Source: a virus. From it: DNA of 64,000 nt. The translations under genes and the position numbers were made by a program. Below the pieces are notes generated by a model. The model had not been told where the DNA came from. It saw only the letters and a list, made by a program, of their open reading frames with translations, and searched no databases. The stretch is from positions 13,467-77,466 of IMG/VR virus record IMGVR_UViG_3300025727_000782; one strand, given 5' to 3'. This document shows, one piece after another, positions 9,384 through 61,922 of this stretch; the first letter of the stretch is position 1, and the number at the start of each line of letters is the position of its first letter.

Positions 9384-9391
9384 ATATTTAT
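9384..9391 (+). promoter_or_regulatory. Putative phage late-promoter motif ATATTTAT
   Basis: Same motif recurs in 8 intergenic gaps upstream of operon starts. Confidence 0.55.
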
Positions 9392-10281: not shown

Positions 10282-11295
10282 ATGATGTCAGTATTTACAA
10301 GATTCGATTTTGAAAACGATGTAGTTGAAAATCAACGAACTAAAGTATCAAGTGGTATTTTTAGTGGTGGAAGTGGAACATTAACCACTTTCTTTACAGC
10401 ATCAGCATTAGGTGATGTTAGTGGTTCGTATCGTGCAATATATCATAAAGTACCAAGCGATTCAACATCAGAAATACAATTTGATATAGGATATGCTAAT
10501 TTTAATGGGAGTGGTTCAGCAGGAAATACTACCAAATTAACAAGTGGTGGAAGACAAACTGCTGGGATGTATCGACAATTCAGAAATGTTTTGTTATCAC
10601 CCAATACCGAGAAATTTACATTCACAAGTGCAGCTTCTACTGCAGATGATTTTTACTTCATCTCGTTCAATAGAGCTCGTATGAGAGAAAAGATTGATCC
10701 AGGTAATTGGGAACTACATCTTGGGAGTACACCATTAAAATTAATTGATGATAGTGGAGCAACTAATAACCCAACTGTTAATGAGGGTGGGAGAGTATAT
10801 AATATTGTTTCAGGTTCATTGGAGACAGGAACAGGTGTTATTAAAACTGCAGCAGTTTCTCAACCAGGTGGAGCAATTGGTACATTCTATCCAGATTTAG
10901 GAATTATTTTATTAAGTGCATCCCAACTTGATGCAAGTGCCTCAATGGCAAGTGCCAGAAGTGCAGATGCATTCGATGACAATGGAATGAAATTTTATAA
11001 TTCAATGGTAACAGGTAATAAAGTTCAAGCTCGTAGAGAAGAAGAAATAACTTCAACAAACTTTTTCTGTAGAGTGAATAACAAACGATACAACTTTAGT
11101 TCCAATCCAACTTTCTTTACAGGTTCAGATGGAGCATTAACACAACAAACTTTCTTCAAAGACCCTAAAGTTTATATTACTTCTGTAGGTATGTACAATG
11201 ATGAAAATGAGTTGTTGGCTATTGCTAAACTAAGTAAACCTATTTTGAAATCATACTCAAGGGAAGCTATTATAAAAGTAAAACTTGACTTCTAA
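10282..11295 (+). CDS. Putative virion structural protein (tail-collar-like C-terminus)
   Basis: C-terminal YITSVGMYNDENELLAIAKLSKPILK...VKLDF; paralogous to next gene. Confidence 0.7.
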   Translation: MMSVFTRFDFENDVVENQRTKVSSGIFSGGSGTLTTFFTASALGDVSGSYRAIYHKVPSDSTSEIQFDIGYANFNGSGSAGNTTKLTSGGRQTAGMYRQFRNVLLSPNTEKFTFTSAASTADDFYFISFNRARMREKIDPGNWELHLGSTPLKLIDDSGATNNPTVNEGGRVYNIVSGSLETGTGVIKTAAVSQPGGAIGTFYPDLGIILLSASQLDASASMASARSADAFDDNGMKFYNSMVTGNKVQARREEEITSTNFFCRVNNKRYNFSSNPTFFTGSDGALTQQTFFKDPKVYITSVGMYNDENELLAIAKLSKPILKSYSREAIIKVKLDF

Positions 11296-11307
11296 GGGGA
11301 AACTATA

Positions 11308-12321
11308 ATGTTCAAAAACATTGACCCATCGAGTAAGTCAATTAAACCTTTTAAAGCGTATAAGTCATTCACACTAACTAACAATGATAGTGGGAGTGGA
11401 CACTTTGTTTTAAAAGCAGTTAGTGGTTCTCATCATAATTTCAATACAGGTTCCGCAGCTTCACAGAGTTTTGGTAGTTATGTTCAATCTGCAAGTGCAT
11501 TTGAATATGGTACATTCTATGATTTACCTAATTGGCATGGAATAAATCAACTCTATTATAAAAGAAGTTCAGAACCATATGGAAATTTTGGAAGTAATAA
11601 TCCTAAAAAGATTAATCGCGAACTAAATGGTACGGCAAGAATATTTTCCATACCAAGACAATTATTCGGTGAACAAATAAAACCAGAAAGTGTAACACTA
11701 TCAGCTACAGCTGATGGCCAAACTTTTGATATCCGAGATGACGGAGATGGGAATTTATTTGATTTTGCTCATTCAGCAAGTTATGCTGCATTTAAATCAA
11801 GTTCATTTAATAGGAGTCAAGGTGTACAATCAAATGGAAGTGGTAGTGAGGTAGGTAATGTTTTTTATGAACATGGCCAAATTGTTATAACCGATACAGG
11901 TTCTTATGTAAATGTAGGAACTTCAACAGGACATACTTTAAATTATAAAGCAACTTCTACATTATATGAACATGAATATGTTGTGGATGCTACACCAAGT
12001 GAGTTTAATTTAAGTACTAATATAAGTGCTACATTTGAACGAAGTGGTAGTATATCAATTGCAGAAGGAAGTGTATCAATGTCAAGATTTTTCCCACCAG
12101 GTGATCAACCAACGGGTGTGGGAACGGGCAGTTTAAAACCATTTTATAATGCAGCTTCTAAGGTGGCATCATACACAACACATTCTGAATTTCGACCATA
12201 TGTTAGTACTGTAGGACTTTATAATGATAGTAATGAACTTATGGCTATTGGTAAGTTAAGTAAAGCAGTGAAGTTTAGTAAAGATTCAAACACATCAATA
12301 GTTATAAGATTTGATGTTTAA
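11308..12321 (+). CDS. Putative virion structural protein, paralogue of preceding gene
   Basis: C-terminal YVSTVGLYNDSNELMAIGKLSKAV...IRFDV; shared DDG.GN and G.VFY..G.I motifs. Confidence 0.7.
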   Translation: MFKNIDPSSKSIKPFKAYKSFTLTNNDSGSGHFVLKAVSGSHHNFNTGSAASQSFGSYVQSASAFEYGTFYDLPNWHGINQLYYKRSSEPYGNFGSNNPKKINRELNGTARIFSIPRQLFGEQIKPESVTLSATADGQTFDIRDDGDGNLFDFAHSASYAAFKSSSFNRSQGVQSNGSGSEVGNVFYEHGQIVITDTGSYVNVGTSTGHTLNYKATSTLYEHEYVVDATPSEFNLSTNISATFERSGSISIAEGSVSMSRFFPPGDQPTGVGTGSLKPFYNAASKVASYTTHSEFRPYVSTVGLYNDSNELMAIGKLSKAVKFSKDSNTSIVIRFDV

Positions 12322-12335
12322 TTAAGTATATATCC

Positions 12336-12342
12336 TATTTAT
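12336..12342 (+). promoter_or_regulatory. Putative promoter motif TATTTAT
   Basis: Upstream of MscS-like gene. Confidence 0.5.
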
Positions 12343-12395
12343 TATTGATTACAGGGGAGTAATTTTTTAATAATTAAAACAGGAGAGAGACTACG

Positions 12396-12830
12396 ATGGA
12401 TACCGATGTTCAAGGGTTATTGAAAACCTTAATAGGACATTACGGTTGGATGGTAGTTACATTTGGTATTATGTTCTTTTTTAAAGAGTCCATAATGAAT
12501 ATGATTCAGGGTATGCAAATATTTATGGGTAACGATTTTAATAATGATGATGTTATCTATATTAGTGGCCGAGAAGCCAGAGTCGTGAGAGTCGGAATGA
12601 CAAAAACAGTATTTTACATGACCGACAGGAGAAGTAAAATGGTAGTGCCCAATGAAAAACTAAAATCCTTAACCTTAGAGAAACGATTACCGCGTGGTGC
12701 ACGCCAGGCTAAAGACGGTTATTTGCCTAAATCTACCGATAAACTATCAGATAAACAAAAACAAGGATTACATGCAGTTTCTAACGAAAAAACTGTACGG
12801 GATACGGGGAAAAAAGTATCAAAAAAGTAG
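12396..12830 (+). CDS. Minimal MscS-like mechanosensitive channel protein
   Basis: Hydrophobic N-terminal helices then FNNDDVIYISGREARVVRVGMTKTVF...VVPNEKL, matching the MscS middle beta-domain; C-terminal alpha/beta domain absent. Confidence 0.7.
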   Translation: MDTDVQGLLKTLIGHYGWMVVTFGIMFFFKESIMNMIQGMQIFMGNDFNNDDVIYISGREARVVRVGMTKTVFYMTDRRSKMVVPNEKLKSLTLEKRLPRGARQAKDGYLPKSTDKLSDKQKQGLHAVSNEKTVRDTGKKVSKK

Positions 12831-12859
12831 TTAGTTTTACCTAAATTTTAAAGATTTTA

Positions 12860-12867
12860 ATATTTAT
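12860..12867 (+). promoter_or_regulatory. Putative promoter motif ATATTTAT
   Basis: Extended context AAATTTTAAAGATTTTAATATTTATTAAT nearly identical to that at 22173-22200. Confidence 0.6.
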
Positions 12868-12910
12868 TAATAAGTCATAATCAATTAACTATAGAAAGGA
12901 TTGACGAAGT

Positions 12911-14173
12911 ATGAGAAAATTATGGATGATACCATTGTTATTTAGTTTTGTGTTCTCACAGAATTTAATAACAGACTTTTTTAAATATTCAACTGTATAT
13001 GCTGGATTTAATTTATCTTCACCTAAATGGGAAGATGATAGATACAGATTGCAGTTAATAAATCCAGAAACTGGCCTACCAGATTGGGTAAATGGAACTA
13101 TTAGTGTAAATAAAGAAGATATAGAATTAAAACCAGATTTTGATTTCTCATTTGGTATAAGAAAAATCGCAAGATTTCATTATGAACCAAAACGAGGAGT
13201 TAAAAATGCTGGTGTTGGTGGAGATTGGTATAAAGGAAATGAATCAAGTCCAAATGATGCTGCTACAATTGGTAGAGTTAAAGGATTTGAGTATTTAATA
13301 AAATATGAAGAAAATCGTAGATGGGATGAGGAGTTTACATCTCAAGAATATAATTTACGATATCTTGGTGATTGGTTTATTGCTAAAATTAAATACCATG
13401 ATTTACAATTAGAAGACATTAAATATTCCCAAGCAGATTTGAGATTTAGAAAAGAATTTCTATTAGAGGATGCAAGTCTAAATCTATCAGTTGGTATTGG
13501 TGGGAGAGAACATCCAGTTTATGGATTTGCCCCTACCGTTATAGATACAAGTTGGTATACAGGTTCTTGGTGGGATTTCGCATCAGATGAATTTGGTGTA
13601 AGTGATAAATACTATCGCGGTGATTTAGACGGAGATGGAGTAGGAGATGGTGGAATGACTATATATGATGCAGCTACAGGACAACCAATAGGTTGGGTAG
13701 GTAGTGATTTTAGATGGTTTGATGCCAATGGTGAATTAATGGCAATGTCTGATAGAGAATTTTATCAATATCATTTTCCTGAATTATTAGAAAATTGGTT
13801 TGAAGATAAAACAAAGGCATTAGGAAATCAACGAGAAATATCATTATCATTCGGTTTAGATTACTATAAATACACAGAGAACTTTTGGATACATGCATGG
13901 GGAACTTTGTTTCCTATCCACTATGGATTAGATAAATACTCTTTCCATAATGCATTTGCATTTAAAGAACATGAAAAACGAGGTGGGGATCCACTTGAGT
14001 TTGAATTTATGGATGCAGAAATAGAACAATGGAATGATTATGACTTCGGTGCAGTAATCGGATTTAAATTAAAAGATAATTTAGGATTTTATGCTGAAGG
14101 TAAATATTTATACTATTGGGAACGCCCTACTTATGATGTACGATTAGGGTTAAATTATCAGTTTTTAAACTAA
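12911..14173 (+). CDS. Exported protein, probable outer-membrane beta-barrel
   Basis: Signal peptide MRKLWMIPLLFSFVFS-Q; aromatic alternating strands; ends VRLGLNYQFLN (beta-signal-like); DLDGDG Ca-binding-like loop. Confidence 0.65.
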   Translation: MRKLWMIPLLFSFVFSQNLITDFFKYSTVYAGFNLSSPKWEDDRYRLQLINPETGLPDWVNGTISVNKEDIELKPDFDFSFGIRKIARFHYEPKRGVKNAGVGGDWYKGNESSPNDAATIGRVKGFEYLIKYEENRRWDEEFTSQEYNLRYLGDWFIAKIKYHDLQLEDIKYSQADLRFRKEFLLEDASLNLSVGIGGREHPVYGFAPTVIDTSWYTGSWWDFASDEFGVSDKYYRGDLDGDGVGDGGMTIYDAATGQPIGWVGSDFRWFDANGELMAMSDREFYQYHFPELLENWFEDKTKALGNQREISLSFGLDYYKYTENFWIHAWGTLFPIHYGLDKYSFHNAFAFKEHEKRGGDPLEFEFMDAEIEQWNDYDFGAVIGFKLKDNLGFYAEGKYLYYWERPTYDVRLGLNYQFLN

Positions 14174-14189
14174 TATAGGAGAGATAAGA

Positions 14190-14258
14190 ATGTTAAACGC
14201 ATGTAAAAACCCAGATTGTAAATGTGAAAATTGCAATTGTAAAAATTGTGATTGTTAA
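14190..14258 (+). CDS. 22-aa Cys-rich, metallothionein-like peptide (not in ORF track)
   Basis: Hand translation MLNACKNPDCKCENCNCKNCDC-stop; AGGAGAG RBS at 14177-14183; fills the intergenic gap. Confidence 0.7.
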   Translation: MLNACKNPDCKCENCNCKNCDC

Positions 14259-14275
14259 TCACTCGGAGAGAATAA

Positions 14276-14848
14276 GTGGATGAAAAGAAATTAGGTCAGC
14301 TGTTGCTCGTTAAAGATGTAATAACTAAACGACAATTAGCATCAGCTGTACAATCACAAATAAAAGGTGATAATAGAAAGATAGGGGAAATCTTAATTGA
14401 TAAGGGATTTCTTACTATGGAAGATTTAACAGATATTTTGTTAGAGAATGGGCATAGTGAGCCAACACCAGTTATACCAACCCCTGAGCCATCAGGTTTA
14501 GTGGAAGGATCAGAATTGAGTAAAAATACAAAATTCAAAGTATCCATTCAGACGATGATTAGTGCTGGAGTTGGTATTGCAACACTGGTTGGATTTTGGT
14601 ACGCATTACAAGCAGACATACAAGAAGCAAAAGAGTTACCCGCGATTGGTAACATATATGACCAAGAGTATCCATCAAAACCAGAAGGATATAACTGGCC
14701 GCGTTCATATGAACAATATAAGGATAATGTTGGTGCACTTCAAGAAGATATGGATGCAGTATTTGAAACCTTAGAAGACTATGAAGAAAAGATTGAAGAA
14801 TTAGAAAAGCAAGTTACAGAACTGAGAATTAAGGTGGGCAATAAATGA
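14276..14848 (+). CDS. Membrane protein with N-terminal MshEN-like c-di-GMP-binding domain and C-terminal coiled coil
   Basis: KKLGQLLLVKDVITKRQLASAVQSQ + RKIGEILIDKGFLTMEDLTDIL tandem motif; TM helix MISAGVGIATLVGFWYAL; GTG start with GGAGAG RBS. Confidence 0.7.
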   Translation: MDEKKLGQLLLVKDVITKRQLASAVQSQIKGDNRKIGEILIDKGFLTMEDLTDILLENGHSEPTPVIPTPEPSGLVEGSELSKNTKFKVSIQTMISAGVGIATLVGFWYALQADIQEAKELPAIGNIYDQEYPSKPEGYNWPRSYEQYKDNVGALQEDMDAVFETLEDYEEKIEELEKQVTELRIKVGNK

Positions 14849-15273
14849 AAAAAACAAGAATAATAAGAAATTTTCTATTTTGGTTTGTACTTGGATTTGT
14901 TATGATGGGTACAGTATCAAGTCAAACAAGACCTAAAGCAAAAGTAGAAATTACAGATAAAACTTTTAAGTCAGCAGTATCTAAAGGGTTTGTTGTGGTG
15001 ATATTCACAGCAGATTATCAATTGAAAAATATTGATCCTAAGATGATAAAAGATATTGAAGGACATGAAAAAACTGTTGTGGTATCAATACAACACAATA
15101 GTGTTTCAGCCGTTGTAAAGAAATTAAGGTTGAGAAATTATCCATCAATAGCTTTGTTTCATAATGGAGCAAAGAAAAAAGTTTGGAAACCAGATATGGA
15201 TGGAAATTTAGGGATAACCCAAAAAGATATTAAAAAAGAAATAACCAATACATTAGCAGGTGATGTATTTTAA
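14845..15273 (+). CDS. Exported thioredoxin-fold protein lacking cysteines
   Basis: Signal peptide; EITDKTF...VVVIFTADY and LRLRNYPSIALFHNG match thioredoxin, but no CxxC. Confidence 0.65.
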   Translation: MKKTRIIRNFLFWFVLGFVMMGTVSSQTRPKAKVEITDKTFKSAVSKGFVVVIFTADYQLKNIDPKMIKDIEGHEKTVVVSIQHNSVSAVVKKLRLRNYPSIALFHNGAKKKVWKPDMDGNLGITQKDIKKEITNTLAGDVF

Positions 15274-15286
15274 AAAGGAGACTGAT

Positions 15287-15454
15287 ATGTTTAAAAAACT
15301 ATTAGTAATAATACCGTTATTGTTTGCACTTGGATGTGAAGACAATATAAGTCATGATATAGATGCTAATATGAATGGTAAAATACAGTTTTCAAATTTA
15401 AAAATAGATACAGATTCAGAAGAATCGCCGTATCATAATTATGGTGGCAGATAA
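15287..15454 (+). CDS. Small lipoprotein
   Basis: MFKKLLVIIPLLFALG-C lipobox; AGGAG RBS supports start 15287 rather than 15260. Confidence 0.65.
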   Translation: MFKKLLVIIPLLFALGCEDNISHDIDANMNGKIQFSNLKIDTDSEESPYHNYGGR

Positions 15455-15475
15455 ACCACTTGTAGGAGAAAGAAT

Positions 15476-16558
15476 ATGGCTGACGAAAATCAAGTAGAAA
15501 CAAGTGAATCAGTATCAGTAGGTGATGATGAAGTTGGTGCAAGTGTAGAAGTAGATACAGGAGCAAGTGTAGAGGTAAGTGATGATGGAGTATCAGCAGA
15601 AGCTCATTATGAAGAATCTGCAGAAGCTCATGCTGGAGTATCAACAGAATCAGACTTGGGAGAAGCTCATGCTGGAGTATCAGCCGAAGTAAGTGTTGAA
15701 GCAGAAGTTCATGCAGATGCAGGATTTGATGGTGAAGATGTGAGTGCAAGTGTTGGAGCATCAATTGAGGAAAAAGCTCAAGTAGGTGTTGAAGCAGGAG
15801 CAAGTACTGATGGGGCTGGAGTTGAAGTTTCAGGTGATGCATATGTTGAAACACACGCAACAGCAGAAGCAGATGTAAGTGTTGGAGAACATGGAGTAGA
15901 AGCTGGTGGAGAAGCATCCATTGGTTCAAGTGTCGGTGTTGAAGGTGAAGGAAGTGCAACCGTAGGAGCCGCAACTGGAACAGTTGGTGGTGGAGTTAGT
16001 GTTGGTGAACAAGTTGGAATTGGTGGAGAAGGACACGCAACTATGGAAGATGGTGTAGTTGATGTAGGTGTTAGTGGAGATGTAGCAGCGTTAGTAGGAA
16101 TTGAAGTTGATGTGGATGTACAAATAGATACTAAAGAAGTTCAGAAAGAAGCTGAAGCGGCACGAGTAGCAGCTGAAGAAGAAGCAAAACGAGTTGCTCA
16201 AGATGTGGCTGATGCAAAGAGAATTGCAGACCAACAAGCAGCTGAGGCAAAAAGAATTGCAGATGAAGCTAAAGCAGAAGCAGAACGACAAGCCGAAGAA
16301 GTTAAGAAACAGGCTGAAGAAGCAAAACAACAAGCCGAAGAAGAAGCAAAACGAGTTGCTCAAGAAGCGGCAGATGCTAAAAGAATTGCAGAACAACAGG
16401 CGGCAGTGGCGAAAAAGAAATCCGATGAGGCCTCAAAAGCAGCAAAGAAAGCAGCAGATGATGCAGCTAATAAAGCAAAGAAAGGTACTAAGAAAGCCAC
16501 TAAGTCAATTTCAAAAGCTTTTGGTGGCGGTAAAAAGAAACATAAGAAGAAACACTAA
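15476..16558 (+). CDS. Gly/Val/Ala/Glu beta-rich protein with TolA-like Ala/Glu/Lys helical repeats and basic tail
   Basis: Alternating VxAxAxV strands aa 1-220; AEEEAKRVAQ/AKRIA repeats; KKKHKKKH end; AGGAG RBS. Confidence 0.7.
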   Translation: MADENQVETSESVSVGDDEVGASVEVDTGASVEVSDDGVSAEAHYEESAEAHAGVSTESDLGEAHAGVSAEVSVEAEVHADAGFDGEDVSASVGASIEEKAQVGVEAGASTDGAGVEVSGDAYVETHATAEADVSVGEHGVEAGGEASIGSSVGVEGEGSATVGAATGTVGGGVSVGEQVGIGGEGHATMEDGVVDVGVSGDVAALVGIEVDVDVQIDTKEVQKEAEAARVAAEEEAKRVAQDVADAKRIADQQAAEAKRIADEAKAEAERQAEEVKKQAEEAKQQAEEEAKRVAQEAADAKRIAEQQAAVAKKKSDEASKAAKKAADDAANKAKKGTKKATKSISKAFGGGKKKHKKKH

Positions 16559-16818
16559 TGGCTATAACAGATTACGATGAATTACATGGTGGTGATGGAC
16601 TACCAGATTGGATGCAATATAGTATTAGTATTGCAATGTTTGGAATGTTTATATGGATAATTTGGTTGTTATTCCATTCTACTTTAGACCCACAGTTTAG
16701 AGACTTACTTAATATTATTGTAGGTGGTTTTTTAGCTTCCTTTGGTAAAGTAGTAGACTTTTGGTTTAAACACGAAAAGTCTAAAAAGGGTGTAATGAGA
16801 TGTACAGGAGGTAAATAA
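16558..16818 (+). CDS. Small two-TM membrane protein (holin-like candidate)
   Basis: Two hydrophobic helices, RDLLNIIVGGFLASFGKVVDFWF, basic C-tail. Confidence 0.5.
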   Translation: MAITDYDELHGGDGLPDWMQYSISIAMFGMFIWIIWLLFHSTLDPQFRDLLNIIVGGFLASFGKVVDFWFKHEKSKKGVMRCTGGK

Positions 16819-16962
16819 ATGCCAAACAGAAAAGCAAAAGATAGAAAAGCTAAACGACAGAAGTTAAATGAAAAATGGAAAACCGAAGGTAGAACTGCAA
16901 AACAACATAAGAAGTGGAAAGCAAAACAACCTACAAATCAAATGCCACGATATGGGAGATAA
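16819..16962 (+). CDS. 47-aa highly basic protein (not in ORF track)
   Basis: MPNRKAKDRKAKRQKLNEKWKTEGRTAKQHKKWK...; AGGAGG RBS. Confidence 0.65.
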   Translation: MPNRKAKDRKAKRQKLNEKWKTEGRTAKQHKKWKAKQPTNQMPRYGR

Positions 16963-16965
16963 CAA

Positions 16966-17118
16966 ATGGAATTAAATTGGACATATGATGTAGAAACTAA
17001 ATTGATGACATTTATTTTAAATGATTCAATTAAATATGTAGCTACAAGTGGAGGCCTTCGTTATGGTAAGAAAGTTGCTAAAGCTCTATTTCAAGGAATA
17101 ATTAAAAAGGACTTGTAA
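16966..17118 (+). CDS. 50-aa hypothetical protein (not in ORF track)
   Basis: MELNWTYDVETKLMTFILND...; GGAG RBS; TAATG overlap with next gene. Confidence 0.55.
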   Translation: MELNWTYDVETKLMTFILNDSIKYVATSGGLRYGKKVAKALFQGIIKKDL

Positions 17119-17528
17119 TGATTACATTAAAAGAAGTTTATTTGTTACAAGAAAGAGAAGATTTTACTTTTATAGCAAGTGAAATCATAAAATATTATAA
17201 ATCAAAAGTTCCGCCAGGAATAAAAATTAACACAACACGATATAAAGATGATACTCTTAAAGGTGATTATAATGTTGATAAAAACACTATACAAATCAGA
17301 ACAAGTTATACAAAAGTATCAGACTTCATGATATCAGTTCTACACGAAATCAAACACGCTATGGATGCTAAAAAGAAGGGTAAAAAAAACTATAAATTAG
17401 ATTACGAGTGGGAAATGAATTATCAGATTGGAAATGGTAAACACCAATATAGAGATAACAAATATGAGATAGAAGCCGAAAAATGGGCAAAAAGTGAGTA
17501 TAGTAAAAGATGGAAAAATAAATTCTAA
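17118..17528 (+). CDS. Zincin-like metallopeptidase
   Basis: SVLHEIKHAMD (HExxH) plus downstream EIEA. Confidence 0.65.
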   Translation: MITLKEVYLLQEREDFTFIASEIIKYYKSKVPPGIKINTTRYKDDTLKGDYNVDKNTIQIRTSYTKVSDFMISVLHEIKHAMDAKKKGKKNYKLDYEWEMNYQIGNGKHQYRDNKYEIEAEKWAKSEYSKRWKNKF

Positions 17529-17545: not shown

Positions 17546-17553
17546 ATATTTAT
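17546..17553 (+). promoter_or_regulatory. Putative promoter motif ATATTTAT
   Basis: TTTAGGTTATATTTAT context shared with 36866-36881. Confidence 0.55.
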
Positions 17554-60362: not shown

Positions 60363-61124
60363 ATGATTAAATTACAAAATATTATTGAGGGTGTACAAGA
60401 TAAAGGTATTTTTAAAGCCGTATTTCTTGCAGGGGGCCCTGGAAGTGGAAAAACAATGTCAGCAAGATGGATATTTGGTATTCCAGACAAGTTTAATATC
60501 AGTATGAGTGGTATGAAAATGGTCAATTCCGATAAAGACTTGAAACATTTATTAAAGAAATTCGGATTCGGTACTGATTTGGATAAAATGCCAGATGAAT
60601 TATTTTCACATTTAACTGGAATGTCAAAAGATATGGTTAGTCCACCACAAGATGTAGATAGTGGATTAAGAAAGTATGCCAAAGAACTTACTGCTGCTAG
60701 GATGAAATTATATAAACAGGGTAAAATTGGAATGATTATAGATGGTACAGGACACGACTTTCAAAAATTACATTCAATGAAAAACGAATTGGAAGCAGAT
60801 GGATATGATACCTATATGGTATTGGTTAATACATCATTAGAGGTGGCACAAAAAAGAAATCAACAACGAGATAGAATATTACCACCAGCACTTTTAAAAA
60901 AGAGTTGGAGCGATGTTCAAAAGAATATAGGAGCTTTTCAGAATTTATTTAAACAAAATTTCGTGATAGTTGATAATTCAAAACATCTATCCGATAAAGA
61001 AGCGGAGGCTAAATTTGTACCATTGGTTACTAAGGTTGTTAGGAAATTTGCTAACATGCCTATCAAAAACCCACTCGGAAGAAAATGGGTTGAAAAACAA
61101 CAAATCCTTAACAAACGGAGATAA
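60363..61124 (+). CDS. P-loop kinase, zeta-toxin/AAA_33-like
   Basis: FLAGGPGSGKT, VNSD, IIDGTG, NTSLEVAQKRNQQRDR. Confidence 0.75.
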   Translation: MIKLQNIIEGVQDKGIFKAVFLAGGPGSGKTMSARWIFGIPDKFNISMSGMKMVNSDKDLKHLLKKFGFGTDLDKMPDELFSHLTGMSKDMVSPPQDVDSGLRKYAKELTAARMKLYKQGKIGMIIDGTGHDFQKLHSMKNELEADGYDTYMVLVNTSLEVAQKRNQQRDRILPPALLKKSWSDVQKNIGAFQNLFKQNFVIVDNSKHLSDKEAEAKFVPLVTKVVRKFANMPIKNPLGRKWVEKQQILNKRR

Positions 61125-61128
61125 GAGT

Positions 61129-61611
61129 ATGTTAATTACTTTTGATGAAATAATCGAAGTAACTTTAGAACACGAGGGTGGATATGTTCACGATCCGAGT
61201 GATTTAGGGGGCGAAACCAATTTTGGTATAGCAAAGAGATTTTATCCTGATGTAGATATCAAGAACCTTACTAAAGAAGGTGCTAAAGAAATCTATAAAA
61301 AAGATTATTGGGATAAGAATAAAATAGATGATGTATCTGATAATTTAAAACATATTTATTTTGATATGTGTGTAAATCAAGGTAGAGGAACTGCAGTAAA
61401 AATCTTACAAAGAGCCATTAATGCAAAGGGTGGTAATTTGAAAGTTGATGGTGGATTCGGGTCAGGCACAAAAGCCGCATTGGACAAATACACTCCAGAG
61501 TTGGAAAGATGTAGAATGTATAGAGTAAAACATTATATGGATATAGTCGCAAGAAAACCTGAGCAGGAAAGATTCCTATATGGGTGGTTTAGGAGAGCAT
61601 TGTCAGTCTAA
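61129..61611 (+). CDS. Endolysin, glycoside hydrolase family 108 with peptidoglycan-binding domain
   Basis: HEGGYVHDPSDLGGETNFGI; FDMCVNQG; VDGGFG; FLYGWFRR; start moved from 60970 to ATG 61129 (GGAG RBS). Confidence 0.9.
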   Translation: MLITFDEIIEVTLEHEGGYVHDPSDLGGETNFGIAKRFYPDVDIKNLTKEGAKEIYKKDYWDKNKIDDVSDNLKHIYFDMCVNQGRGTAVKILQRAINAKGGNLKVDGGFGSGTKAALDKYTPELERCRMYRVKHYMDIVARKPEQERFLYGWFRRALSV

Positions 61612-61922
61612 TGGCTGGAGATTGTTACGCGGCAAATGGTAGGTGGATGATTGGTAAGGATGATTCCTATCGATTAGTTCATGGTGTTGCAATTTTAGCA
61701 TCCGATGGTAAACCATTTGGACATTGTTGGATTGAAAAGGGTGGTACGGTATTGGATTTCAGTAATGGAAAAGATATTAAAATATCTAAAAAGAAATATT
61801 ATGAGTTAGGTGAGATACCAGTTAAACCATATAAACTTTATAAATACAAATATTTAGAGGCTGCAAAACTAATGGTAAAATTAGGACATTGGGGGCCGTG
61901 GGAATTAAAACCACCGAGATAA
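61611..61922 (+). CDS. Small transglutaminase/papain-like Cys-His-Asp protein
   Basis: GDCY...VHG...GHCWIE...VLDFS. Confidence 0.5.
   Translation: MAGDCYAANGRWMIGKDDSYRLVHGVAILASDGKPFGHCWIEKGGTVLDFSNGKDIKISKKKYYELGEIPVKPYKLYKYKYLEAAKLMVKLGHWGPWELKPPR

Follow-up and report, generated by a model that had tools for sequence, protein, structure and literature searches.

A constant trio of predicted envelope proteins in uncultured phages as a possible spanin-like module for outer membrane disruption

The inner membrane subunit of a two-component spanin, the i-spanin, is an N-in/C-out protein with a helical or coiled-coil periplasmic domain, and 91 of 677 surveyed phages of Gram-negative hosts, about one in seven, were without a known spanin (Kongari et al. 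2018, PMC6139136). The MshEN domain binds cyclic di-GMP (c-di-GMP) in MshE, PilB and NfrB (Wang et al. 2016, PMC5013675; Junkermeier and Hengge 2021, PMC8669469). Here we describe a phage locus that brings together features of both systems. It lies in a stretch of 64,000 nucleotides (the window), positions 13,467 to 77,466 of the IMG/VR virus record IMGVR_UViG_3300025727_000782, which is 77.5 kb long and has an estimated completeness of 27%. Within an island of genes, lettered here by position, gene B encodes a predicted outer membrane beta-barrel, gene D an inner membrane protein with an MshEN-type domain and a coiled coil, and gene E an exported thioredoxin fold. The whole analysis rests on sequence, predicted structure and gene neighbourhood; signal peptides and transmembrane (TM) helices were assigned from hydropathy and motif. 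We propose, tentatively and at a little short of an even chance, that B, D and E form a three-part, spanin-like module for disruption of the outer membrane, and that a c-di-GMP-receptor-type domain was gained in the clade of the window.

Gene B (12911..14173, + strand) encodes a protein of 420 residues with a signal peptide. Its AlphaFold model, which is of middling confidence (pLDDT 70.9), forms a closed antiparallel barrel of about 12 to 14 strands, and the C-terminal strand is aromatic, of the NYQF type; these are the features by which outer membrane barrels are recognized. A Foldseek search against the PDB returned 227 matches at E<1e-3, and all among the matches listed were outer membrane barrels. 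The best VIA match was Tsx (Z 15.1, root mean square deviation 3.5 Å over 203 residues), followed by autotransporter barrels (Z 12-13), KdgM (Z 12.3) and NanC (Z 11.8). A PDB sequence-profile search and Pfam gave no match for B, and it could be placed in no specific family. Close homologues numbered 671, with no Pfam family among the matches listed, and the nearest protein-atlas clusters were, among those listed, 100% viral. The protein carries an insert of about 100 residues (about 205-305) and an invariant loop of 37 residues (86-122), and it is more conserved between relatives (66-70% identity) than the adjoining fibre genes (35-55%).

Gene D (14276..14848, + strand) encodes an MshEN-type domain (residues 1-58), a linker, a TM helix (about 88-111) and a periplasmic part of some 79-80 residues, in which an invariant EYPSKPEGYNWPRSYEQYK motif is followed by a C-terminal coiled coil. 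Residues 5-55 match the NCBIfam family NF053729, 'c-di-GMP-binding domain, MshE-related', with an E value of 1.1e-11 and 44.3 bits against a cut-off of 38. A PDB profile search matched PilB (1e-9) and MshE (5htl; 3e-5), and the domain is closest to that of PilB. Motif 1, KLGQLLLVKDVITKRQLASAVQSQ, agrees with the published pattern save for an Asp at position 10, where Gly, Ala or Ser is expected. The spacer has 6 residues instead of 5, and motif 2, KIGEILIDKGFLTMEDLTDILLEN, agrees with the relaxed pattern of the same authors. In many relatives of D, motif 2 has Thr or Ser before LG and is without the expected Arg or Lys. The C-terminal half of D is akin to a TM-coiled-coil protein of 130 residues at the related locus L090 (hhalign probability 94%), a paralogue that weakly matches an Rz-like spanin PHROG (E 7e-3), and members of the D family match small TM-coiled-coil PHROGs, Rz-like ones included. 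D has a TM helix and then a helical or coiled-coil periplasmic part as an i-spanin does, yet 85 cytoplasmic residues precede the helix.

The start of gene E (14845..15273, + strand) overlaps the stop of D (ATGA). The product has a type I signal peptide, without a lipobox, and matches PF00085 (E 1.5e-6) and thioredoxin-fold PDB profiles down to 2e-11. The cis-Pro is retained, but the CxxC site of redox-active thioredoxins is deleted, and the window protein is without any Cys. The C terminus is conserved as (G/E)DVF, and 54 of 61 distinct versions end in DVF. A complex prediction for D (residues 112-190) with E (27-142), both given as alignments, scored 0.02 against a mark of 0.32, a result that counts neither for nor against binding.

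IMG/VR was searched with B (25 loci) and D (80 loci), and removal of duplicates left 66 distinct versions of D. E directly follows D in all 62 relatives that could be counted for it, and in 58 of 60 the B gene is found upstream of D at a distance of no more than 3.5 kb. The other genes of the island are less regular: F is present in 40/52 relatives (77%), I in 19/42, H in 17/42 (40%), A in 13/50 (26%) and G in 2/42 (5%), while Cys-rich peptides of the C type occur at 48 of 105 loci (about 46%). The order of these variable genes is shuffled between relatives. The initial annotation had proposed that the eight genes A to H form a self-contained cassette spanning inner membrane, periplasm and outer membrane, and had named conservation of the gene neighbourhood as the check. 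The eight genes are indeed consecutive on the + strand and tightly packed, and B, D and E, predicted to reach the outer membrane, the inner membrane and the periplasm, stay linked in nearly all relatives. A, C, F, G and H vary, C and G are not exported, and F is a remnant. As judged from these neighbourhoods, B, D and E are a constant trio within a variable island of envelope and signalling genes, and co-conservation does not extend to all eight genes as a single cassette.

The only relatives without B are L090 and L095. In both, E is without the DVF end, and a short D-like gene is followed by a gene for a lipoprotein of 220 residues, which is a classical spanin-like arrangement. These observations, which amount to a single evolutionary event, are consistent with B and the lipoprotein being alternative outer membrane partners and with the tail of E contacting B.

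A profile search with B reached 256 clusters at E<1e-3. Three distant full-length relatives of B, used as the only bait, recovered 87 further IMG/VR loci, which were scanned with hidden Markov models built from our own alignments. A TM-coiled-coil homologue of the C-terminal half of D, 94-130 residues long (D'), was found at 86/87 of these loci, and an E-like thioredoxin (E') immediately after D' at 84/87; the gene order was B-D'-E' or D'-E'-B'. Judging by these counts, barrel, anchor and thioredoxin have stayed linked through deep divergence (35-45% identity) and through changes of gene order. None of the 87 loci of other lineages yielded an MshEN domain, which makes the MshEN head an acquisition of the clade of the window. 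The short D' forms have the classical i-spanin build.

This persistence bears on the view that the island holds unrelated, moron-type genes without a joint function, gathered in a permissive gap between structural and replication modules. The gap is a hot spot: contigs differ in which genes they carry there (A, C, F, G, H and I, and those for H-NOX, cyclic-nucleotide-binding, pilin and small TM proteins) and in how these genes are arranged. Such an origin suits the accessory genes but not B, D and E, for which it is contradicted by a linkage that outlasts sequence divergence and changed order; as an account of the locus we give it very little chance. The accessories, that is the mini-MscS, the Cys-rich peptide, the lipoprotein remnant, and the two-TM, basic and acidic proteins, are variable members of the same genomic island.

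The neighbourhood of the trio in other lineages points to lysis. The gene after the trio encodes PG_binding_1 and Amidase_2 domains in L124, and Peptidase_M15_3 in L122, where a phrog_3427 holin type comes next (E 1e-13); in L133 and L186 it is a phrog_33083 endolysin type (E 5e-18). Three unrelated enzyme classes in the same position are the mosaic pattern typical of lysis cassettes. Four endolysin types were searched for, and one of them lies less than 2.5 kb downstream, mostly 12-500 nt away, in 25 of the 47 distinct trio loci whose downstream sequence extends for 2.5 kb or more. Within the MshEN clade, 12 of 48 distinct relatives have a phrog_3427-type holin gene (E 4e-27) 14-1073 nt after E. 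A lysis cassette had been dismissed earlier on the ground that the endolysin of the window lies about 45 kb away. The distance stands, and the argument drawn from it is weakened by the endolysin and holin types that adjoin the trio in relatives.

The window endolysin (61129..61611, + strand) has GH108 and PG_binding_3 domains and matches phrog_315 (E 2e-49). Its longest open reading frame (60970-61611) opens with a TTG within the kinase-like gene before it. The ATG at 61129 is the more probable start, with the domain matches lying downstream of it. No membrane-protein gene, holin or spanin candidate adjoins the endolysin in the window. Directly after it (61611-61922) lies a gene for a Cys/His protein of 103 residues (GDCYxANGR...GHCW) with a weak transglutaminase-core match (E 0.02); in relatives this gene sits inside the envelope island (L010:13030-13359, L090:4772-5080). 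At about 25 loci of other lineages (for example L124:9670-10869 and L133:10582-11754), the endolysin is followed, 0.9-2.5 kb past the trio, by a gene for a protein of 367-399 residues with four TM helices and without a family match, which may be a further member of the lysis cassette.

From this neighbourhood and the predicted compartments we infer the following scheme. B would be embedded as a beta-barrel in the outer membrane of the host; D would be a bitopic inner membrane anchor, with its C-terminal 80 or so residues, motif and coiled coil, extending into the periplasm; and E, translationally coupled to D, would be a redox-dead periplasmic thioredoxin fold. The three proteins may bridge the periplasm and take part in the final stage of lysis, the breaching of the outer membrane, with a barrel and an adaptor in place of the outer membrane lipoprotein of spanins. 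The MshEN-type domain on D could tie this step to the second-messenger state of the host. Among the functions suggested earlier for the cassette, signal-controlled lysis fits best, with transport and superinfection exclusion as possible but less favoured candidates.

Several points weigh against this scheme. A rigid barrel is not an obvious partner for membrane fusion, and the large, highly conserved and probably surface-facing insert of B would fit a role at the cell surface. D resembles spanin PHROGs only weakly (E 7e-3 to 0.03), through coiled-coil similarity, and its periplasmic part is short (about 79 residues). None of the four endolysin types lies nearby at 22 of the 47 loci of other lineages. 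The trio of the window adjoins tail-fibre genes, 45 kb from the endolysin, and no holin-type gene was found in the window or in its 77-kb record. Finally, binding of c-di-GMP by the MshEN-type head of D is uncertain, because of the Asp in motif 1, the six-residue spacer and the Arg or Lys that is missing in many relatives.

Gene F enters into one alternative. F (15287..15454, + strand) has a signal peptide and the lipobox LGC, in line with the lipoprotein noted earlier, and in the window only a deletion remnant of 39 mature residues is left. Relative to its nearest relative, the L027 protein of 213 residues, it has lost residues 33-181 in frame, and the remainder is 98% identical. The model of full-length F (pLDDT 80.8) is a small all-beta domain, for which no family could be assigned, the best match (LpqH, Z 7.4) being within the noise range. 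In relatives the gene lies mostly upstream of D. An acidic run follows the lipid-modified Cys (CED/CDD...EE), like the acidic run of the surface-export signal of Bacteroidota lipoproteins (PMC5080379). F and D were also considered as a classical spanin pair, and we rejected this pairing: with about 190 residues folded into an all-beta structure, F is no short Pro-rich lipoprotein, its start is acidic like that of surface-exported proteins, and it is dispensable.

It may be asked whether the locus remodels the host surface, with B (and intact F) bringing about superinfection exclusion or receptor masking and D and E as helpers, in the manner of phage outer membrane porins and lipoproteins that protect infected cells. 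The strong conservation of B relative to the fibre genes, together with an insert of about 100 residues that probably faces outward, would suit such a role, as would the resemblance of the acidic run of F to a surface-exposure signal and the surface lipoproteins among the weak matches of its all-beta fold. The island also stands directly after the tail-fibre genes, type IV pilin genes are found in 17 relatives, and the MshEN domain of D is closest to that of PilB. Exclusion genes, however, are usually variable accessories, whereas the trio is near-universal across several phage lineages. F is dispensable, being deleted in the window and missing in 12/52 relatives, and surface remodelling leaves unexplained the three classes of endolysin and the holin-type genes beside the trio. 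We consider this reading unlikely.

The spanin-like reading places the MshEN-type domain in a regulatory position, and genes near the trio in relatives bear on that part of it. In 4/63 relatives (L010:11374-11922, L011:12416-12967, L049 and L059), the gene immediately before D encodes an H-NOX protein (PF07700, E 4e-45). The only close match to the phage H-NOX, 77% identical, is on a 49-kb contig (L113, CAYXZV010000007.1) binned in a Methanosarcinales metagenome-assembled genome, which is probably a mis-binned phage contig; other matches are about 35% identical and come from mixed phyla. Directly after E, 19/52 relatives encode a three-TM protein with a cyclic-nucleotide-binding domain (PF00027, E 6e-14; POPDC-like; for example L013:12900-13553), often paired with an H-like two-TM gene. 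Given these neighbours, a link to signalling is plausible.

The same genes raise the question whether the trio is a signal relay and not an effector. D would sense c-di-GMP and pass its state on through E, as does the inside-out receptor LapD, so as to time lysis or to alter the envelope without breaking the outer membrane. The MshEN-type domain above its curated cut-off would agree with this, as would the H-NOX gene and the cyclic-nucleotide-binding protein in relatives. The motif departs from the consensus, however, and the trio occurs without the MshEN domain at 87/87 loci of other lineages, so that sensing is not its basic function. As a description of the trio, a relay is distinctly unlikely. 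Among the functions suggested earlier for the cassette, signal-controlled lysis fits best, with transport and superinfection exclusion as possible but less favoured candidates.

Two of the accessory genes, A and C, bear on transport. Gene A (12396..12830, + strand; 144 residues) encodes one hydrophobic helix, an MscS beta-domain and a basic tail. Residues 32-90 match PF00924 (E 5e-7, 30.2 bits against a gathering cut-off of 20.2), and the protein aligns with the pore-helix end and beta-domain of MSL1. Its family has 246 members, those listed being 128-144 residues long. Full MscS proteins have the sensor helices TM1 and TM2, TM3, the beta-domain and a C-terminal alpha-beta domain, so A is a fragment-like relative of MscS and not a full one. 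Gene C (14190..14258, + strand) encodes a peptide of 22 residues, 7 of them Cys, that has no signal peptide; an AGGAGA ribosome-binding site precedes the gene. Comparable Cys-rich micro-genes (15-43 residues, 5-18 Cys, CxC/CC patterns, without a signal peptide) with strong AGGAG sites lie between B and D at the 48 of 105 related loci (L001-L105) counted above; they encode 30 distinct peptides, whose sequence diverges fast while the composition is retained.

On these grounds the locus could be an uptake or solute system, in which B is a substrate-specific channel like Tsx, NanC or KdgM, F a surface binder, E a periplasmic carrier and the Cys-rich peptide a cytoplasmic metal buffer. The best structural matches of B are small specific channels, nearly half of the loci have metallothionein-like micro-genes between B and D, and the mini-MscS is a fragment of a channel. 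The barrel matches are generic, however, since autotransporter barrels, OMPLA and LpxR score similarly, at 7-12% identity. No inner membrane transporter is linked to the set, and D is without any transporter feature; A, C and F are not constant, and the linkage to lysis genes is left without an explanation. An uptake role therefore seems very improbable to us.

Gene G (15476..16558, + strand) encodes a charge-polarised protein, with an acidic half rich in V, G, A and E, then an A/K/E helix and a poly-Lys tail; the isoelectric points (pI) of the two halves are 4.1 and 9.5. It had been described as a beta-rich, TolA-like envelope protein, a description that we reject since G has no export signal and no TM helix; it probably stands outside the envelope set. 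Gene H (16558..16818, + strand) encodes 86 residues with two TM helices and a basic C terminus, a holin-like build, and weakly matches phrog_9990 (E 5.5e-3), as do two-TM proteins near the trio in L013 and L204. Gene I (16819..16962, + strand) encodes a very basic protein of 47 residues (pI 11.5) that is not exported and recurs as a neighbour in the 19 of 42 relatives noted above. With the exception of G and of the truncation of F, the domain calls of the initial annotation were borne out: the mini-MscS by a family match above cut-off, the exported barrel by its signal peptide and its structural matches, the Cys-rich peptide by its composition, the MshEN-TM-coiled-coil protein by its NF053729 score, helix and coiled coil, the exported Cys-free thioredoxin by its signal peptide, PF00085 match and deleted CxxC, and the two-TM protein by its helices. 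Three to four type IV pilin-like genes (GFTLIEL N termini) and an Flp-like gene lie downstream of D and E at 17 loci (L036, L058, L088 and 14 others); none of these pilin-like genes is present in the window.

The window has a G+C content of about 31%, and every gene is on the + strand. Upstream of the island are baseplate-wedge genes (phrog_6, phrog_261) and a gene for a Vint-domain protein of 1595 residues, followed by two paralogous fibre-like genes of 337 residues each (10282-11295 and 11308-12321). These adjacent paralogues share the C-terminal end VG(L/M)YND.NEL.AI.KLSK and are kept upstream of the island in 53/59 relatives. Downstream are genes for a PD-(D/E)XK nuclease, a primase and an SbcCD-type fusion; the island thus separates the tail module of a large uncultured myovirus from its replication module. 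The ten consecutive genes from B to K (12911-17528) are separated by gaps of -4 to +21 nt, most with an AGGAG-like ribosome-binding site before them. Between the island and the nuclease, 17118-17528 encodes a conserved protein of 136 residues with a HEIKH (HExxH) motif; it is found in many relatives, and Pfam and PHROG searches gave no match for it. GenBank phage records held no match for the DNA of the region, nor for B or D as proteins, and a PHROGs search returned no significant family for A to G and only the weak match for H. Many small genes, in the window (61926, 62750) and elsewhere (L005, L010, L044, L051 and others), start with MIKLK(D/N/S)LL, and they may form a multi-copy family with only the N terminus in common.

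The cassette had also been described as lying behind sequence motifs. This is borne out in part: among the genes of this region, a promoter-like ATATTTATTA motif precedes B alone (12860..12869, + strand; next copy at 17546), and a variant with one mismatch to it, CTATTTATTA, precedes A (12336..12345, + strand). The word ATATTTAT was rejected as an enriched word overall, with 24 copies found in the window against 18.8 expected, and its copies at 12519 and 14104 are inside genes. Enrichment is confined to intergenic DNA: 7 of the 18 + strand copies fall within 1310 nt of it (2% of the window), which is why we regard the motif as promoter-like. In short intergenic gaps, ATATTTAT(TA) stands 18-50 nt upstream of start codons, at 9384, 12860, 17546, 22189, 35772, 36874 and 60328, and it is probably a phage promoter element. 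We take it to resemble the Bacteroidota -7 box, TAnnTTTG.

Export signals of the island give an indication of the host. In Bacteroidetes, a 'Q-rule' places Gln right after the signal peptide cleavage site (PMC5837995). The rule is followed by 60 of 61 distinct versions of E and 36 of 59 distinct versions of B. Because of this pattern and the acidic run of F, these signals suggest a Bacteroidota-type host, and the host is probably a member of the Bacteroidota.

Lysis of Bacteroidota by their phages is poorly understood. If the spanin-like reading is true, the spanin gap would be partly closed by a barrel-based trio found in hundreds of marine phage contigs, and three large families of 'hypothetical' proteins would gain an annotation. 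B, D and E may then open the outer membrane by a route that has yet to be described. By carrying a c-di-GMP-type sensor on a lysis component, with genes for H-NOX and cyclic-nucleotide-binding proteins nearby in relatives, such a phage would also give a concrete example, open to test, of lytic exit being coupled to the signalling of the host. In its boldest form, which we put forward as a speculation that is unlikely to hold in full, the trio would join lipoprotein spanins and disruptin peptides as a third kind of device for disrupting the outer membrane. Built from a barrel inserted by BAM, an adaptor with a thioredoxin fold and a coiled-coil anchor in the inner membrane, it would serve many ocean phages of Bacteroidota-type hosts; a working c-di-GMP receptor would time rupture in this clade, and relatives would add nitric oxide/oxygen (NO/O2; H-NOX) and cyclic-nucleotide inputs. 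Even without a lytic role, the trio is a conserved, phage-specific predicted envelope complex of abundant ocean viruses.

Four known systems are close enough for comparison. In structure, B is most like Tsx, KdgM, NanC and the 12-stranded autotransporter barrels (Z 15.1 to 11.8), but identity to them is 8-12%, there is no Pfam or profile match, and the large insert and long invariant loop are found only in B. With the MshEN domains of MshE, PilB and NfrB, D shares two tandem 24-residue motifs with the key Leu-Gly pairs, a score above the curated cut-off and the PilB and MshE profile matches. In contrast to those proteins, its domain is encoded by a phage and, where theirs is joined to an ATPase or a glycosyltransferase, is followed by a TM helix and a periplasmic coiled coil; the Asp at the turn position of motif 1 and the six-residue spacer make it a candidate binder only. 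NfrA/NfrB/YbcH of Escherichia coli likewise combines an outer membrane barrel, an inner membrane MshEN protein and a periplasmic protein (PMC8669469). This is a host system, however, not a phage one, in which NfrB is a glycosyltransferase for a secreted polysaccharide whereas D is without an enzyme domain, and in which NfrA is a TPR-barrel; there is no homology to the trio beyond MshEN.

The fourth parallel is with the two-component spanins, such as lambda Rz/Rz1 and T4 PseT.3/PseT.2. Both arrangements, the trio by prediction, have an N-in/C-out anchor with a helical or coiled-coil periplasmic domain and an outer membrane partner, both have endolysin or holin neighbours (for the trio, in some of the relatives), and for both the presumed task is to complete the lysis of Gram-negative hosts. 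The trio differs in that its outer membrane partner is a 420-residue barrel instead of a small lipoprotein, that a third, periplasmic thioredoxin-fold protein is always present, and that in this clade a cytoplasmic MshEN-type stretch of 85 residues comes before the TM helix of D. Similarity to the Rz family is weak (E 7e-3 to 0.03), and the genes of the window are far from the endolysin. An o-spanin gene encodes a small outer membrane lipoprotein and lies within, overlapping or just after the i-spanin gene, whereas the gene after D is E, which is without a lipobox. For this reason, we regard B, D and E as a candidate functional analogue of the spanins rather than as members of the spanin family.

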